Assembly (NCBI GenBank): GCA_041308845.1 | Contig: JBFZAT010000026.1 | Coordinates: 41,102 to 105,101, forward strand | Source of the DNA: Candidatus Omnitrophota bacterium | GTDB taxonomy: Bacteria; Omnitrophota; Gorgyraeia; Gygaellales; Profunditerraquicolaceae | Reading direction: 5' to 3' | Length of the DNA stretch: 64,000 nucleotides | Shown here: piece by piece, positions 55,931 to 62,126 of the stretch | How the letters are laid out: the number at the start of each line of letters is the position of its first letter | Position numbering within the stretch: the stretch's first letter is position 1 | Program-made: the position numbers and the translations under genes | Notes under the pieces: generated by a model | Seen by the model: only the letters and a program-made list of their open reading frames with translations | Told to the model about the DNA's origin: nothing | The model's database searches: none

Positions 55931-56934
55931 TCGTTTTAGGTATTGAAAGTTCCTGCGATGAGACTGCCGTGGCGCTGGTTAAAAATGGTAAAATCATCCT
56001 GTCTAATGTGGTGGCTACCAGCTTGAAGTTACATAGCCGCCACGGCGGGGTAATCCCGGAGATTGCTTCACGTATGCAGTTAGAAAGTATAGCTCAGGTA
56101 TTTAAACAAGCGCTGAGGCAGGCAAAGATAAAATCCGGGCAGATTGATTTAGTGGCGGTGACTACTCATCCGGGGCTGCCCGGTTCGCTTATGGTGGGCG
56201 TGGCTTTCGCCAAGGCATTAGCTTTAAGTTTATCCAGGCCGTTACTGGGGGTTAATCATATTTACAGCCATGTTTACGCCAATGTCCTTAGTCATCGGGC
56301 ACTTAAGTTACCGGCGGTAGCCTTGGTGGTTTCTGGCGGTCATACCTCTTTATTTTATATCCCTCATTTTTCTAGAATCCAGACCTTAGGGGAAACCCGG
56401 GATGATGCTTGTGGAGAGGCTTTTGATAAAGTAGCTAAGATTATGGGTTTAGGATATCCCGGAGGTCCATTAATTGAACGATTGGCTAGGAACGCAAATA
56501 ACCATAAGATTCGCTTTTGCTGTTCAGGTACTCAGAATAGGCTGGATTTTAGTTTTAGCGGTATAAAAACCGCAGTTTTATACTATTTAAAGAAGAATAA
56601 GCTGGATGCCAAACTAAAAGCTGACTTGGCTGCTTCATTTCAGGAAAGCGTTCTGGAAGTTTTAGTGAAAAAATCTTTTTTAGCCTGTAAACAAAAAAAA
56701 GTACATCGGTTAATCGTCGGTGGTGGAGTAGCGGCGAATCAGGCTTTACGGCAGAAATTTATGCGGAATGCAAAGATCGCAGGGGTGGAATGTTTTTTTC
56801 CGGAGGTTCCTTTATGTATGGATAACGCTGCGATGGTTGCTGGTTTCGGAGGCTGTCTTTATAAGGCTAAGGCGGGGACAACTCTTAATTTCAACATTCA
56901 GTTAAAAGAGGAGGGCAAATGCCTACAGATCTAG
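55927..56934 (+). CDS. tsaD: tRNA N6-adenosine threonylcarbamoyltransferase
   Basis: MIVLGIESSCDET N-terminus, His metal site HRHGGV, and the Kae1/TsaD fold. Confidence 0.9.
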   Translation: MIVLGIESSCDETAVALVKNGKIILSNVVATSLKLHSRHGGVIPEIASRMQLESIAQVFKQALRQAKIKSGQIDLVAVTTHPGLPGSLMVGVAFAKALALSLSRPLLGVNHIYSHVYANVLSHRALKLPAVALVVSGGHTSLFYIPHFSRIQTLGETRDDACGEAFDKVAKIMGLGYPGGPLIERLARNANNHKIRFCCSGTQNRLDFSFSGIKTAVLYYLKKNKLDAKLKADLAASFQESVLEVLVKKSFLACKQKKVHRLIVGGGVAANQALRQKFMRNAKIAGVECFFPEVPLCMDNAAMVAGFGGCLYKAKAGTTLNFNIQLKEEGKCLQI

Positions 56935-57365
56935 AGATGATTATGCGCCTGTTGCTAACTTTAGTACTAAGCGGTTTAATTGGCTTAGAAAGGCAGGTCC
57001 ACCGCAGGGATGCTGGTTTGCGTACGCATATACTAGTGGCGCTGGGTAGTTGTCTTATCATGTTGACATCTTTGTATGTTTTTGATATATATAAAGATCA
57101 GGTATCTCTGGATCCGGTACGTATTGCTGCCGGTGTAGTTACCGGAATTGGTTTTTTAGGAGCCGGCACAATCATTCGCGAATCTGATGGAGTCAGAGGT
57201 TTAACTACAGCGGCCAGCCTTTGGGTGGCAGCCGGAATTGGCTTAGCGGTAGGGACGGGTTTTTGTAAAATTGCTATCTATACTACGGTTTTAGTTTTAA
57301 TTGTACTGCATTTTTTACGCTATTTAGAAGTACCACTTTCCAAGGAGGGTAAACATGGCCTTTAA
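56919..57365 (+). CDS. MgtC/SapB-family membrane protein
   Basis: 148 aa with four TM helices and LIGLERQVHRRDAGLRTHILVALGS matching the MgtC N-domain. Confidence 0.7.
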   Translation: MPTDLEMIMRLLLTLVLSGLIGLERQVHRRDAGLRTHILVALGSCLIMLTSLYVFDIYKDQVSLDPVRIAAGVVTGIGFLGAGTIIRESDGVRGLTTAASLWVAAGIGLAVGTGFCKIAIYTTVLVLIVLHFLRYLEVPLSKEGKHGL

Positions 57366-57858
57366 AAAGAATCTGGAAGAAAAAACTCTGGATGTTGATG
57401 CGGCAATGCAGGGGACGTTAACTTTTAAGGACCCGGTTAATCTGCGTATTAACGGTAAATTTGAAGGTAATCTGGATACGCGGGGCAATTTAACCATTGG
57501 TACTACAGCCGTTATTAATGCCGATATACTGGGAGATAATATTATTATCGGCGGGCGGGTTAAGGGTAAAATTACGGCTAAAGAAAGATTGACCTTGCTG
57601 CCCCAGGCAATTGTAGAAGGGAATATTTACCCGGCTAAACTTAACATTACTGAAGGCGCAGTTTTTGAGGGTCATTGTACGATGCTGCATGATTTCCTTA
57701 ATTCCGAACAGTTATCCAAGTATCTGGAAGTAGAGTTGAGTTCGATTATGGAATGGGCTAGTTCCGGCAAAGTACCAGCGACTAAAGAAAATAACGATTG
57801 GAAATTTGAGCGTAAAGCGATTGATTCCTGGGTAGCTTCAGGGAAAATCGCCAAATAA
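57355..57858 (+). CDS. bactofilin with a C-terminal excisionase/MerR-type HTH (HTH_17-like) extension
   Basis: Beta-helical bactofilin core (GNLDTRGNLTIGTTAVINADILGDNIIIGG...EGAVFEG), then KYLEVELSSIMEWASSGKVPATKENNDWKFERKAIDSWV. Confidence 0.65.
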   Translation: MAFKKNLEEKTLDVDAAMQGTLTFKDPVNLRINGKFEGNLDTRGNLTIGTTAVINADILGDNIIIGGRVKGKITAKERLTLLPQAIVEGNIYPAKLNITEGAVFEGHCTMLHDFLNSEQLSKYLEVELSSIMEWASSGKVPATKENNDWKFERKAIDSWVASGKIAK

Positions 57859-57862
57859 AAAT

Positions 57863-58174
57863 ATGACCGAAGAAAAAATGCTCACCGTCAGGGATGTTGC
57901 GGTTATGCTCGGAGTTACGGAGAAAGATGTCTTAGACCTTACCGAGCAGGGTAGGATTCCGGGGTATAAGGTGGGAGGAGTATACCTAAGGTTTAAGAAA
58001 GATCAAGTAGAGCAGTATAAAAAACAGCAGAGCCTGTTAGATCCTAAACCGGTTAAACCCGGGGCTGACGGTTTGGGCAATAAAGTTTTCGATTTTTTTT
58101 ATTTTAACGATTTTTATATTTTCGCTTTAATTTTAATTTGCCTTTTAGGGTATCTGGTTTACCGGGGTTTATAG
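57863..58174 (+). CDS. small HTH_17-like protein with a C-terminal transmembrane anchor
   Basis: LTVRDVAVMLGVTEKDVLDLTEQGRIPGYKVGGVYLRFKKDQV HTH, then the hydrophobic helix FYIFALILICLLGYLVY. It lies 4 nt after the bactofilin gene. Confidence 0.5.
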   Translation: MTEEKMLTVRDVAVMLGVTEKDVLDLTEQGRIPGYKVGGVYLRFKKDQVEQYKKQQSLLDPKPVKPGADGLGNKVFDFFYFNDFYIFALILICLLGYLVYRGL

Positions 58175-58178
58175 AGCG

Positions 58179-58850
58179 ATGGCCGCAGGCAAGGGATTTT
58201 GCGATTTGGGATTTGCTAAGATTGATACCGACCGCCAGAAACGCAAAGGATTTGCAGAGGTTATCTATTGCCCGGGCAAAGACCGCCAGCATTTAAAGGA
58301 TATTGCTAAAAAAATTATTACAGCTAGGCAGGACCTGTTATTAACTAGGCTGGATAAAACTACCTTTTCCTTTTTAAAAAAAGCCATCCCGGTTCTCAAG
58401 TATAATTCTTTGGCTAAAATCGGCTATTATTCTGTTAAGGCTAAATCTACCAGAGGCGGTTTAGTGCTGGTGGTTTCTGCCGGTACTGCAGATATTCCGG
58501 TAGCCGAAGAGGCGGTGCAGACTTTATCGTTGATGGGTAACCGAGTAGAGAAGTTATATGATGTCGGTGTCGCCGGAGTGCACCGGCTGATGAATAATCT
58601 GGATAAACTTAGGTCTGCGCAGGTGATTGTTGTCGTAGCTGGCATGGAAGGGGCTTTAGCTAGCTTAATCAGCGGGTTGGTTAAAGCGCCGATTGTGGCA
58701 GTGCCCACCAGTTGTGGATACGGATCAAGTTTTTCCGGATTGGCTGCGCTTTTAACGATGCTAAATGGTTGTTCGCCTGGGGTGGGCGTAGTTAATATTG
58801 ATAACGGTTTCGGAGCAGGCTATTTGGCTAGTTTAATCAACCAAAAATAA
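58179..58850 (+). CDS. larB: nickel-pincer cofactor biosynthesis protein LarB (PurE-like P2CMN synthase)
   Basis: AEVIYCPGK, VVVAGMEGALASL..G....PIVAVPTSCGYG and VVNIDNGFGAG motifs of LarB / PurE class. Confidence 0.75.
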   Translation: MAAGKGFCDLGFAKIDTDRQKRKGFAEVIYCPGKDRQHLKDIAKKIITARQDLLLTRLDKTTFSFLKKAIPVLKYNSLAKIGYYSVKAKSTRGGLVLVVSAGTADIPVAEEAVQTLSLMGNRVEKLYDVGVAGVHRLMNNLDKLRSAQVIVVVAGMEGALASLISGLVKAPIVAVPTSCGYGSSFSGLAALLTMLNGCSPGVGVVNIDNGFGAGYLASLINQK

Positions 58851-58852
58851 TC

Positions 58853-60184
58853 ATGGGGCTTTCAGGTTTAGATATCTATAAATTATTACCTAAGACTAAT
58901 TGCCGTGAATGCGGATTAGCTACTTGTTTAGCTTTTGCTATGCAACTGGCCAAGAAAACATTACCTATTGAAAAATGTCCTTTTATTTCTGCTGAGGCAA
59001 AATCTGCCTTGGAGGCCCAGGCTTTAGCACCGATTAAGTTGATTACGTTAGGTAATACCGATACGAAATTCCAGGTGGGTAACGAAACAGTGATGTTTAG
59101 GCATGAAGAAAAATTTCGTAATCCCACAGGCGTAGGTTTTATAATCGAGGATACGCTTAGCGATAGCCAGATTAAAGAGCAGCTGGGAAAAATCAATCAG
59201 TTAAAATTCGAACGCGTCGGCCAGGAGCTCAGCGTTAATCTGGTTAGTCTAAGGCAGAATAAAGATGCTGTTCGGTTTCTGCAGGCGGCGAAGATACTTT
59301 TAGATAATACTTTGCTGCCGATAATGTTGATGAGCAGTGATTTATTAGCTTTACAGCAGGCGGCCGCCCTCTGCCGGGGAGTTAAACCATTACTTTACTG
59401 TGCTGACCAGGCAAACTTTGTTCAACTGGCTGCGCTGGCTCAAGAATTTCAGCTTCCGCTGGTTGTAGCCGCTCAGGATATAGATCAGCTCAGCCGGCTA
59501 ACTCAAGAGATCAACCGTTTAGGCCTCAGCGAGTTGATACTAGATACCGGCATCAAGCCTCTGGCAGATAAGCTCTGGGATTTAACCCAAATCCGCCGGC
59601 AGGCCTTAAAAAGATCCAATCGCGCGCTGGGTTATCCTGTACTGGCCATTGCTGAACAGGCCGATCCTTATCAAGAAGCTATAGAGGCTAGCGCTTATAT
59701 TGCTAAGTATGCGGGTATTGTTTTAATTAAAGGTTTTTCTACTTGGGAAGTTCTTTCTATATTAACCTTAAGACAGAATATCTATACCGATCCGCAGAAA
59801 CCTCTGCAAATTGACCCTCAACTTTACGCTATCGGCAAGGTAGGCCCGGATTCGCCGGTTTTGGTCACTACTAACTTTTCTCTGAGTTATTATACTGTTT
59901 TAGGGGAAGTAGAAGCCAGTAAAATACCGGTTTACATCTTAAGCGTTGATACTCAAGGGATGTCTGTGCTGACTGCCTGGGCCGCTGAGAAATTCAACCC
60001 CGAAGCAATTACTAAATCACTGGATACTTTTAAAGTCAGGGAAGTGGTTAAGCATAAGAATTTGATTATTCCCGGTTATGTGGCGATGATCAGCGGTGAA
60101 TTGGAAGAGCAGTCAGGATTCAGAATTATTGTGGGCCCTAAAGAAGCTGCCGGAATTCCCGCTTTTTTAAAAAATCTTAATTAA
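58853..60184 (+). CDS. acsC: corrinoid iron-sulfur protein large subunit (acetyl-CoA decarbonylase/synthase gamma)
   Basis: N-terminal [4Fe-4S] motif NCRECGLATCLAFAM...CPF almost identical in pattern to Moorella AcsC; 443 aa. Confidence 0.85.
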   Translation: MGLSGLDIYKLLPKTNCRECGLATCLAFAMQLAKKTLPIEKCPFISAEAKSALEAQALAPIKLITLGNTDTKFQVGNETVMFRHEEKFRNPTGVGFIIEDTLSDSQIKEQLGKINQLKFERVGQELSVNLVSLRQNKDAVRFLQAAKILLDNTLLPIMLMSSDLLALQQAAALCRGVKPLLYCADQANFVQLAALAQEFQLPLVVAAQDIDQLSRLTQEINRLGLSELILDTGIKPLADKLWDLTQIRRQALKRSNRALGYPVLAIAEQADPYQEAIEASAYIAKYAGIVLIKGFSTWEVLSILTLRQNIYTDPQKPLQIDPQLYAIGKVGPDSPVLVTTNFSLSYYTVLGEVEASKIPVYILSVDTQGMSVLTAWAAEKFNPEAITKSLDTFKVREVVKHKNLIIPGYVAMISGELEEQSGFRIIVGPKEAAGIPAFLKNLN

Positions 60185-60200
60185 GATAAAAAATTAATAT

Positions 60201-62126
60201 ATGCGGAAATTTAAAGTTAGATTTCTACCCGATAATCTGGTGATTATGGTAGAAGAGAATAAAACCATTCTTTCTGCGGCGATATCCGCAGGCATTTATC
60301 TGAACTCTAATTGTTCTGGTGAAGGTACTTGTGGAAAATGTAAAGTGGTGATCAAGCAGGGGACAGTTAAAACTCGACCTAACGGAATGATCAGCGAGCA
60401 AGAAAAAAAGGATAATGTATATTTAGCTTGTTTGACTACTGTTCAAGGGGAGCTGGAAGTTTTAATCCCGGAGAGCTCCCGGTTTGATTTTGATCAACTT
60501 ACACCCGAGCAGTTACAAGAACGCTTAGTAGGTTTATACGCTCAGGCTGAGGAGCTCCCGCTAGAAAATCCGAAATTTGAAGATGAAATTTTTCAGCATT
60601 CGCCTTTTTCCAGGAAAGTATATTTAGAACTGCCGAAACCTACACTTAATGATAGCATTAGCGATTTAGAAAGGTTATACCGCAGCTTGCGTAATCTGGA
60701 GAATTTTCCGGTCATCTCAACCGGGATATTTAATATTCGCCAGTTAGGTGAGTTATTACGTAATTATGATTGGAAGGTTACTGTAACTTTGACCCGGCGT
60801 CACGATGCAGTGGAGATTGTATCCATTGAACCCGGTGATACTAGTGATAAGAATTTCGGGTTTTGTTTTGATATCGGTACGACTACAATTTCCGGTCAAT
60901 TAGTAAACCTGAATACTAACCAGGTTATTGGGACTAAGGCTGCTTCTAATCCGCAGGCGGCTTTTGGCAGCGATGTCATCACCCGGATTGTTTATGCCGC
61001 TCAAGTTGCAGGGTTAGAGAAATTGCACCTGATGGTCTCAGATACGATGAATCGGATTATTCAGGATTTAACCGCTGAGTATCAAATTGCTCTCAATGAC
61101 GTTAATTGTATTGTTTGTTCGGGTAACACCACGATGATTCATTTACTTTTACGCATGGACCCTCAACATATTCGTCGGCATCCCTACATTCCTACGGCAA
61201 ATTACATCCCGGTTCTACCAGCTAAGGAAGCGGGAATTAAAATTAATCCGCGCGGGTTTATGCGTTGCGTTTCCGGGGTAGCTAGTTATGTTGGCGGAGA
61301 TGTTACTGCCGGCGTTTTGTCCAGCCGGATATATAAGCAGACAGATCCTTGTATTTTGATCGATATCGGCACAAACGGGGAAATTATATTGGGGAATCGG
61401 GATTTCTTAGTAGCTGCTGCGGCTTCTGCCGGGCCGGCTTTTGAAGGCAGCGGAGTAACCAGCGGTATGCGCGCCGCCAGCGGAGCGATCCAAAAAGTAA
61501 GAATTGATAAAAAAGATTTAAACGTTCAATATAGCACGATCCAGGATAAGTTACCCCGTGGAATCTGCGGTTCGGGTTATATTGATTTATTGAGTGAAAT
61601 GTTAAGTTCCGGGGTAATTGACAAGGCCGGGAAAATTAAGGTTCAGGGCCGGCGTGTCCGTCCTAGCGCTAGCGGTTTAGAATTTGTAGTTTGTTTTAAG
61701 GAAGATATCCAAGCCCAGGCAGATATTGTAATTAACGAAGCAGATATCGAAAATCTCAAGCGCTCTAAAGCCGCTATTTATTCTGCTACGGCAATTTTGA
61801 CTAGGCATTTAGAGCTAAGTTTCTGCAATATCTCTAAAATATTTATTGCTGGCGGATTCGGGACGTATCTGGATGTCCAAAAGGCAATCAGTATAGGGTT
61901 ATTACCGGATTTACCGCTTAATAAATTTATCTTTATCGGAAATAGTTCTTTAGCCGGAGCCCGGGAAATTCTTTTATCCCAACAAGCAATGGTAATGGCC
62001 GATACACTGGCGGCTAAAATTACTTATTTTGAATTATCTGTAGACCCGGCTTACATGGATGAATACGGGCAGGCATTATTCTTTCCGCATACAGATTTAA
62101 CTAAGTTTCCCCGGGTGAGCTTTTAA
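60201..62126 (+). CDS. acsV: reductive activator of CoFeSP (RACo): [2Fe-2S] ferredoxin domain plus ASKHA ATPase domain
   Basis: N-terminal plant-type ferredoxin CSGEGTCGKCKV; 641 aa; a C-terminal ASKHA fold. It sits between acsC and cooC as in Moorella orf7. Confidence 0.75.
   Translation: MRKFKVRFLPDNLVIMVEENKTILSAAISAGIYLNSNCSGEGTCGKCKVVIKQGTVKTRPNGMISEQEKKDNVYLACLTTVQGELEVLIPESSRFDFDQLTPEQLQERLVGLYAQAEELPLENPKFEDEIFQHSPFSRKVYLELPKPTLNDSISDLERLYRSLRNLENFPVISTGIFNIRQLGELLRNYDWKVTVTLTRRHDAVEIVSIEPGDTSDKNFGFCFDIGTTTISGQLVNLNTNQVIGTKAASNPQAAFGSDVITRIVYAAQVAGLEKLHLMVSDTMNRIIQDLTAEYQIALNDVNCIVCSGNTTMIHLLLRMDPQHIRRHPYIPTANYIPVLPAKEAGIKINPRGFMRCVSGVASYVGGDVTAGVLSSRIYKQTDPCILIDIGTNGEIILGNRDFLVAAAASAGPAFEGSGVTSGMRAASGAIQKVRIDKKDLNVQYSTIQDKLPRGICGSGYIDLLSEMLSSGVIDKAGKIKVQGRRVRPSASGLEFVVCFKEDIQAQADIVINEADIENLKRSKAAIYSATAILTRHLELSFCNISKIFIAGGFGTYLDVQKAISIGLLPDLPLNKFIFIGNSSLAGAREILLSQQAMVMADTLAAKITYFELSVDPAYMDEYGQALFFPHTDLTKFPRVSF

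Follow-up and report, generated by a model that had tools for sequence, protein, structure and literature searches.

A bactofilin–winged helix-turn-helix fusion and its tail-anchored partner form a conserved gene pair in Omnitrophota

Within a 64,000-nucleotide (nt) stretch of contig JBFZAT010000026.1 from a Candidatus Omnitrophota bacterium, the whole of which we refer to as the window, two adjacent open reading frames (ORFs) encode proteins that each carry a small winged helix-turn-helix (wHTH) domain. The first, ORF1, is a bactofilin with the wHTH fused to its C-terminus, and the second, ORF2, is a membrane protein that carries a related wHTH at its N-terminus and a single hydrophobic helix at its C-terminus. 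The pair is a conserved, phylum-wide module in the uncultured phylum Omnitrophota, with ORF2 found directly 3′ of ORF1 in every related locus where the contig leaves room for it. Both ORFs had been picked out in an original prediction made from the sequence alone, and we confirm them here as lying on the + strand with a gap of 4 nt between them. We propose, with a probability of about 0.4, that the two proteins make up a membrane-proximal, bactofilin-scaffolded array of wHTH domains that tethers or organises DNA, in which ORF2 would serve as the anchor and do most of the DNA binding and ORF1 would provide multimerisation. The literature that we searched holds no published bactofilin–HTH fusion, no account of bactofilins in Omnitrophota and no paper that joins a bactofilin with an excisionase. 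A built-in domain of DNA-binding type, a constant membrane-anchored partner and a degree of conservation above that of the universal tRNA-modification enzyme TsaD together point to a core cell-biological function that has yet to be described.

Domain architecture of the two proteins

The bactofilin family model (PF04519) matches residues 12–108 of ORF1 with an E-value of 5e-25 and 88 bits (Pfam cut-off 27.9), and the HTH_17 model (PF12728) matches residues 114–163 with an E-value of 6e-8 and 33.2 bits (cut-off 27), in agreement with the earlier description of a bactofilin that ends in an Xis/MerR-type HTH. Against TIGR01764 the tail scores 19.5 bits, below the cut-off of 28.8. We built an AlphaFold2 (AF2) model of ORF1 on a 61-sequence alignment, in which residues 11–110 are all beta, with block values of the predicted local distance difference test (pLDDT) that are mostly 92–97 and fall to 74–85 at the N-terminal end. 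A Foldseek comparison pairs this core with BacA (2n3d; target TM-score (TMt) of 0.83, root-mean-square deviation (RMSD) of 2.0 Å) and with TtBac (6rib; TMt 0.75). In HMMER alignments to 2n3d and 6ria, F104 of ORF1 falls at the polymerisation-critical phenylalanines BacA F130 and TtBac F105; the family consensus in this column is leucine in more distant members, so the position stays hydrophobic.

The tail of ORF1 is modeled as a winged helix, with helices at residues 117–124 and 128–137, a hairpin at 143–152 and a final helix at 153–161, and six of its residues (Y123, L124, E125, W134, P141 and W159) are invariant. The original prediction had allowed that this region might be no more than a disordered bactofilin C-terminus; its HTH_17 score above cut-off and the confidence of the predicted fold (pLDDT 81–91) argue that it is not. 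Foldseek matches the tail to BldC, RdfS, RacA and Xis at RMSDs of 1.2–1.9 Å. Whereas the C-terminal tails of canonical bactofilins are short and disordered, that of ORF1 is a folded, highly conserved wHTH of 50 residues, and in the window's clade its linker to the core is only some 5 residues long.

At its other end, ORF1 begins with MAFKKNL in the window and with MAFKKKL in most relatives, and MAFKKK/N is the dominant form in the family. The bactofilin membrane-targeting consensus is MFSKKKK (PMC12448750), which MAFKKNL resembles but for an extra alanine; some distant clades hold basic residues only. From this likeness, the N-terminus may bind the membrane. The PF04519 beta-helix, the interface phenylalanine and the short basic and hydrophobic N-terminus are features that ORF1 has in common with BacA of C. 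crescentus, TtBac and CcmA.

ORF2 scores above cut-off with both HTH models, matching HTH_17 over residues 6–57 (E-value 3.6e-11, 43.6 bits) and TIGR01764, named "excise", with 43.5 bits. Its AF2 model, with a mean pLDDT of 68, shows a strand–helix–helix–hairpin–helix head that is followed by a disordered stretch at about residues 57–70 and then by helices at 71–81 and 83–101. The last of these is hydrophobic and is modeled with block pLDDT values of 83 (residues 81–90) and 92 (residues 91–100). The Kyte-Doolittle mean over 19 residues peaks at 2.07 in the window protein and reaches at least 1.9 in 77/77 close orthologues, which agrees with the single C-terminal transmembrane helix of the original prediction. 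The hydrophobic tail is retained in the distant clade, and in the window protein only 2 residues come after the helix. The linker differs in length between lineages. The reading frame, length and motifs of ORF2 are kept down to 39% identity.

The head of ORF2 has RacA (5i44) as its top Foldseek match, with a TMt of 0.65–0.67 and an RMSD of 1.9 Å. For the two HTHs taken together, the nearest solved folds are RacA 5i44, BldC 6ama, RdfS 8dgl and the Pukovnik Xis 4j2n, at RMSDs of 1.0–1.9 Å (1.0–1.6 Å for BldC) and TMt values of 0.65–0.83. CbpM, a MerR-like example of a protein-binding domain, is also among the matches. A sequence search for solved-structure relatives of ORF2 found none, and RacA was not matched, at E ≤ 1 for ORF1 or E ≤ 10 for ORF2, when PDB sequences (5i44 among them) were searched with phmmer and hmmsearch.

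The original prediction had called the two HTHs paralogous. Their homology holds up, but their standing as recent copies does not: BLASTP finds no similarity between the two window domains, and the relationship is visible only by profile and shuffle-controlled comparison. The family profiles of the ORF1 tail and the ORF2 HTH align with an hhalign probability of 95.6% (E-value 1e-8, 15% identity), and within-locus Smith-Waterman scores beat those of shuffled sequences in most genomes, with median z values of 5.9 (close clade) and 7.8 (distant clade), a maximum near 15 and a value of 3.6 in the window. The distant-clade ORF2 also carries "FLEVE", like the invariant "YLEVE" of ORF1. By these comparisons the two HTHs are homologous domains of long-ago divergence, and an ancient duplication is a plausible origin for them.

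Table 1 Features of the gene pair (positions in the window)
Feature	Position	Strand	Basis
Shine-Dalgarno sequence of ORF1, AAGGAGGG	57342..57349	+	Read directly from the sequence
ORF1, bactofilin–wHTH fusion, 167 amino acids (aa)	57355..57858	+	Pfam Bactofilin and HTH_17; AF2 mean pLDDT 86
ORF1 N-terminal tail, MAFKKNLEEK	57355..57384	+	pLDDT < 50 for residues 1–9, disordered
ORF1 bactofilin beta-helix core, residues 11–110	57385..57684	+	Pfam; PDB alignments 2n3d, 6ria; Foldseek 2n3d
ORF1 C-terminal wHTH, residues 114–163	57694..57843	+	HTH_17, AF2, Foldseek, dN/dS about 0.018
ORF2, tail-anchored wHTH membrane protein, 103 aa	57863..58174	+	HTH_17 and TIGR01764, both above cut-off
ORF2 wHTH, residues 6–57	57878..58033	+	HTH_17, AF2, Foldseek, residue conservation
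ORF2 variable, disordered, mildly basic linker, residues 58–70	58034..58072	+	pLDDT < 50 for residues 60–69
ORF2 aromatic juxtamembrane helix, residues 71–82, motif DFFYFND	58073..58108	+	Model helix 71–81; phylum-wide motif
ORF2 C-terminal transmembrane helix, residues 83–101	58109..58165	+	AF2 helix and Kyte-Doolittle hydrophobicity

Two smaller observations concern the ends of these proteins. Among the bactofilin cores nearest to ORF1 that have no HTH, one (P0161) is by Pfam a bactofilin–PilZ fusion of 253 aa and another (P0155) has a hydrophobic C-terminus, so the C-terminal effector domains of this bactofilin lineage look modular. In one sub-lineage of ORF2 (loci L106, L108, L109, L111, L114, L118, L120–L123, L126–L130, L132 and L134) a conserved polar extension, ...YWFLHTTVSS or ...YWFLRTAVSS, runs past the transmembrane helix and, unlike the end of the window protein, would place a few residues in the periplasm.

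Conservation of the pair across Omnitrophota

The ORF1 fusion has 1,509 close homologues, and both Pfam domains are present in all of the best 120 of these. Named matches to the fusion are all from Omnitrophota, save a few metagenome-assembled genomes labelled Pacebacteria or Planctomycetales. When 1.84 billion representative proteins were searched exhaustively, about two dozen full-length fusion clusters came up at 36–56% identity and were followed by ordinary bactofilins, while a profile of the distant fusions drew in 496 more proteins, every named one of which belongs to Omnitrophota. As far as the named matches go, the fusion appears to be confined to this phylum.

The linkage of the two genes was followed in a close sample of 80 species-representative genomes (L001–L080) and in two more distant sets. 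In the close sample, ORF2 lies directly 3′ of ORF1 in 79/79 genomes with room for it (the 80th contig ends too early), and its product is 100–103 aa long where the start is unambiguous. The same arrangement is present in 6/6 divergent contig loci (L081–L086), with a seventh, L087, too short to tell. In a second clade, 80 metagenome loci were found with a 7-sequence profile; ORF2 is complete in 71 of them and cut by contig ends in 6, and where it is lacking, in 9 loci, no more than 346 nt remain downstream. The distant loci with room therefore carry ORF2 in 77/77 cases (L081–L086 and the 71 metagenome loci), and the pair is not the accident of a single lineage that the original prediction had considered as a possibility.

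Within its block, ORF1 is the most conserved gene, with a median identity to the window protein of 81%. The corresponding values are 78% for MgtC, 75% for LarB, 68% for CdhD, 65% for TsaD, which is encoded two genes upstream, and 61% for ORF2. Nei-Gojobori ratios of nonsynonymous to synonymous substitution (dN/dS), which are rough because dS is near saturation, come to about 0.035 for the ORF1 core and about 0.018 for its tail, and in ORF2 to about 0.08 for the HTH, about 0.38 for the linker and about 0.15 for the aromatic motif with the transmembrane segment. On these estimates both genes are under strong purifying selection, and the ORF1 tail is constrained at least as much as the beta-helix to which it is attached.

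Three unrelated gene contexts surround the pair. In the window's clade and four divergent lineages it sits between GatB–S41–Polysacc_deac_2–TsaD–MgtC and AIRC, although at L083 ExbB/ExbD take the place of AIRC downstream. In the second clade it is preceded by MnmA, GT4, Def, PAP2 or AsmA and followed by AcpS–YdjC–SurE, and at L086 it lies between SPOR and TPR-PDZ genes on one side and small ORFs on the other. Because the neighbours vary in this way, the pair is the only unit that the whole phylum conserves. MgtC could not be detected at L041, L049 and L057, L083 and several further loci lack AIRC, and neither gene occurs at L086 or, with the exception of two loci, in the second clade. Linkage to mgtC is thus dispensable, and we rejected a functional link to MgtC or LarB, as the pair persists where one or both are gone.

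A possible DNA tether at the membrane and its alternatives

In the mechanism that we propose, the pair would put wHTH domains of DNA-binding type on the inner face of the cytoplasmic membrane. ORF1 would polymerise via the ends of its beta-helix, as the retained interface phenylalanine F104 suggests, and would lie on the membrane by its MAFKK N-terminus, so that its tails would form a dense, periodic array of wHTHs. ORF2 would insert through its C-terminal helix and present a second wHTH close enough to reach this surface, and with its better set of DNA-contact residues (K21, K36, R43 and K45) it would probably be the main DNA binder. Many weak contacts, probably of low specificity, would then sum to hold chromosomal DNA at the scaffold, with ORF1 giving the multimerisation that the tethers RacA, RocS and RicO draw from a coiled coil. 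If DNA binding is correct, the pair would be a new solution to nucleoid anchoring, parallel to that of the Firmicute proteins but made from other parts. A bolder proposal, which we put forward tentatively, is that Omnitrophota possess a cytoskeletal polymer that binds DNA directly, the bactofilin filament, with one wHTH on each subunit, and the tail-anchored wHTH together forming a scaffold for the nucleoid, or an anchor for segregation, that is attached to the membrane. No studied bacterium is known to couple chromosome and cytoskeleton in this way, and the coupling would be conserved and near-essential throughout a phylum of ultra-small cells.

The closest precedents are RacA of B. subtilis, RocS of S. 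pneumoniae, RicO of S. aureus and Par of pSK1, which position DNA by means of a MerR-type wHTH, a coiled coil and an anchor to the membrane or pole; the amphipathic helix of RocS can be functionally replaced by a transmembrane domain. Like these proteins, the pair has a small MerR/Xis-type wHTH, a multimerising element and an anchor and is encoded outside the division cluster, and the transmembrane segment at the end of ORF2 recalls the substitute used in RocS. The differences from RacA, RocS and RicO are that the functions are split over two proteins, with the bactofilin beta-helix expected to replace the coiled coil, that the wHTH of ORF1 is C-terminal rather than N-terminal, that ORF2 is anchored, in a functionally analogous way, by a transmembrane helix where those proteins use an amphipathic helix or bind DivIVA, and that the host belongs to Omnitrophota rather than Bacillota. 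The AF2 models contain no coiled coil, as ORF1 has its beta-helix and ORF2 a disordered linker.

Bactofilins themselves are known as nucleotide-independent scaffolds that recruit clients, and their one known link to DNA is found in the BacNOP–PadC–ParAB system of Myxococcus xanthus. There, as proposed here, a bactofilin scaffold is tied to chromosome organisation; however, the tie is indirect and runs via PadC and ParB/ParA, whereas in ORF1 the domain of DNA-binding type is fused directly to the bactofilin. This distinction had been drawn in the original prediction and it stands, since no PadC or ParB-like gene lies near the pair in the contexts examined.

To judge whether the wHTHs could contact DNA, we compared them with two relatives whose contacts are known. 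In RacA, K15 and R19 contact bases, the R19A mutation abolishes binding, and R30 and Y36 of the wing contact phosphates (PMC4914108). In BldC, mutation of R30 abolishes DNA binding, and R48 is a minor-groove residue. Positions were mapped by MAFFT using RacA and BldC sequences that agree with every residue number quoted in the papers. RacA R19 and BldC R30 correspond to D25 in ORF2 and E133 in ORF1, RacA K15 and BldC K26 to K21 in ORF2 and S129 in ORF1, and BldC R48 to R43 in ORF2 and K150 in ORF1. The BldC contacts K26, R30 and R47/R48 are thus kept in part, as K21 and R43 in ORF2 and, in the window's clade only, as K150 in ORF1. R43 of ORF2 is invariant (156/156 sequences), and positions 36 and 45 are each K or R, with 4 exceptions among the 156 sequences. 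These conserved residues make ORF2 a credible candidate for a wing-dependent DNA binder, and its position 25 is K or R in 39/77 distant loci.

Other observations weigh against the tether. The arginine that is essential in RacA (R19, the counterpart of R18 in RicO) is replaced by E or D at position 133 of ORF1 in 163/167 loci, and by D, E or N at position 25 of ORF2 in the window's clade, so that DNA binding is not assured. ORF1 of the window's clade also has N or S at position 129 in place of the second base-contact lysine, and its tail appears to depart from the canonical docking mode. Both HTHs are near electrically neutral by sequence count, as is the RacA domain, and the Foldseek E-values for both are weak, at 0.004–0.5, because the domains are small. 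Finally, Omnitrophota retain FtsZ and dcw genes (PMC12283558), and no missing division function therefore points to the module; for the same reason the module does not replace the divisome, and the idea of an FtsZ replacement was dropped. On balance, the membrane–cytoskeleton–DNA tether of the original prediction is plausible given the RacA and BldC fold matches and the precedent of RacA, RocS and RicO, and the acidic residue in place of the essential arginine speaks against it.

Between the window's clade and the distant clade, charged residues on the putative DNA-facing surfaces of both proteins switch in concert. The switches in ORF2 are R10 to E/D, K21 to Q/P/D and D25 to K/R/Q (window 57890–57937), and those in ORF1 are K122 to Q, N/S129 to R/K, K144 to F/Q and K150 to V/I (window 57718–57804). 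Contacts may have moved to other positions, or changes in one protein may compensate for those in the other.

An acidic residue at the arginine position, phylum-wide in ORF1 and in the window's clade in ORF2, would fit a reading in which the wHTHs are protein–protein adaptors that do not bind DNA. In that case ORF2, an integral membrane protein, would be the receptor for the bactofilin polymer or would regulate its assembly. The ORF1 tail would dock on the ORF2 head, for example as a head-to-tail heterodimer of the BldC kind, and fix the cytoskeleton to the membrane in a morphogenetic role. The strict co-occurrence of two homologous domains is in keeping with such an arrangement, as are the head-to-tail self-association of the BldC and RdfS fold on DNA, the presence of CbpM among the fold matches, the common use of integral membrane clients by bactofilins, and the binding of B. 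subtilis bactofilins to BacR (see below). BldC and RdfS share their fold with the pair but are free-standing small proteins. What the adaptor does not readily explain is the wing of ORF2, where basic residues are kept phylum-wide and, together with K or R at the arginine position in half of the distant clade, are hard to account for without DNA or another polyanion. In addition, ORF1 would need no adaptor to reach the membrane if its MAFKK N-terminus takes it there, and mutual information with average product correction between the ORF1 tail and the ORF2 head does not rise above the within-clade permutation null (0.265 against 0.262 ± 0.012 over 150 pairs), in a test of low power (effective number of sequences, Neff, of 67). 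We regard the adaptor as somewhat unlikely; were it correct, the pair would show plainly that a winged HTH can be put to new use as a link between cytoskeleton and membrane.

Membrane-tethered transcription factors are a known class, and the pair may instead be a transcriptional switch of the BacR type, in which the access of the wHTHs to DNA is set by sequestration on the polymer (ORF1) or at the membrane (ORF2) and gene expression is thereby linked to the state of the envelope or cytoskeleton. In B. subtilis, the gene for the HTH protein BacR (YhbD, DUF4004) is a neighbour of the bactofilin genes. Binding by the bactofilins, for which a contact close to the BacR HTH is predicted, prevents BacR from binding DNA and retains it at the membrane; upon bactofilin depletion or cell-wall stress it relocates to the nucleoid (PMC13649987). 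The resemblance to BacR with BacE and BacF lies in an HTH, with a "...YRW" recognition helix in BacR, that is encoded beside bactofilins, binds them and is located at the membrane, and the HTH_17 fold family does include regulators such as BldC. Unlike the pair, however, BacR is a separate, soluble protein of the 200-aa class that has a DUF4004 C-terminus, is unfused, lacks a transmembrane segment and controls the operon that encodes it, and DUF4004 gives no match at E ≤ 1 in either ORF1 or ORF2. A 1:1 fusion would make the regulator as abundant as the structural subunit, ORF2 lacks a sensor domain and exposes hardly any residues to the periplasm, and the missing arginine of ORF1 is as much a problem for a switch as it is for a tether. 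As the operon that contains the pair also changes from clade to clade, and no non-coding region conserved upstream of the pair could serve as an autoregulatory target, we consider a switch unlikely.

A role as a mobile-element excisionase (recombination directionality factor) or as a component of the MADS anti-phage system is effectively excluded, even though ORF2 passes the "excise" model and both proteins weakly resemble MAD1: their scores against NF047737 are 35.6 and 39.5 bits, far under the cut-off of 80, and only 14.7 and 27.9 bits against the PADLOC mad1 model; the window flanks and about 160 related loci hold housekeeping neighbours and no integrase, phage or defence genes; and inheritance looks vertical and phylum-wide under very strong purifying selection. 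As no integrase is nearby, the pair is not an excisionase.

Setting of the pair in the window

Upstream of the pair, the window encodes an S41 peptidase, Polysacc_deac_2, TsaD and MgtC, and downstream it encodes an AIRC/LarB-like protein, CdhD and RACo, which matches the earlier placement between mgtC and larB and apart from division genes. No further copy of a bactofilin or HTH_17 gene is present within the window. The 3′ end of mgtC (56919–57365) overlaps the start of ORF1 by 11 nt and contains AAGGAGGG, a strong Shine-Dalgarno sequence that lies 5–6 nt before the ORF1 ATG; the overlap suggests translational coupling. A scan for promoters and terminators was uninformative, as the counts were no higher than those in shuffled sequences.

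In some close relatives, the spacer between ORF1 and ORF2 is 70–105 nt long, as opposed to 4 nt in the window. Five of these spacers (L001:4505–4608, L002:4505–4585, L005:4505–4601, L006:681–749 and L015:4505–4585) hold a conserved stem-loop, AGCGGATAYCGCTTAG...AAGTTTAGGCCGCG, for which Rfam offers no match and which the window lacks. Through processing or attenuation, this element may set the ratio of ORF1 to ORF2 expression.

At 58179–62126 of the window, the AIRC/LarB-like gene lies immediately 5′ of the genes for CdhD, the corrinoid protein subunit of acetyl-CoA synthase, and for the reductive activator RACo. At L081, unlike in the window, a LarC-type Ni_insertion gene comes after the AIRC gene. 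A LarB-like carboxylase beside Wood-Ljungdahl genes may merit a separate look.

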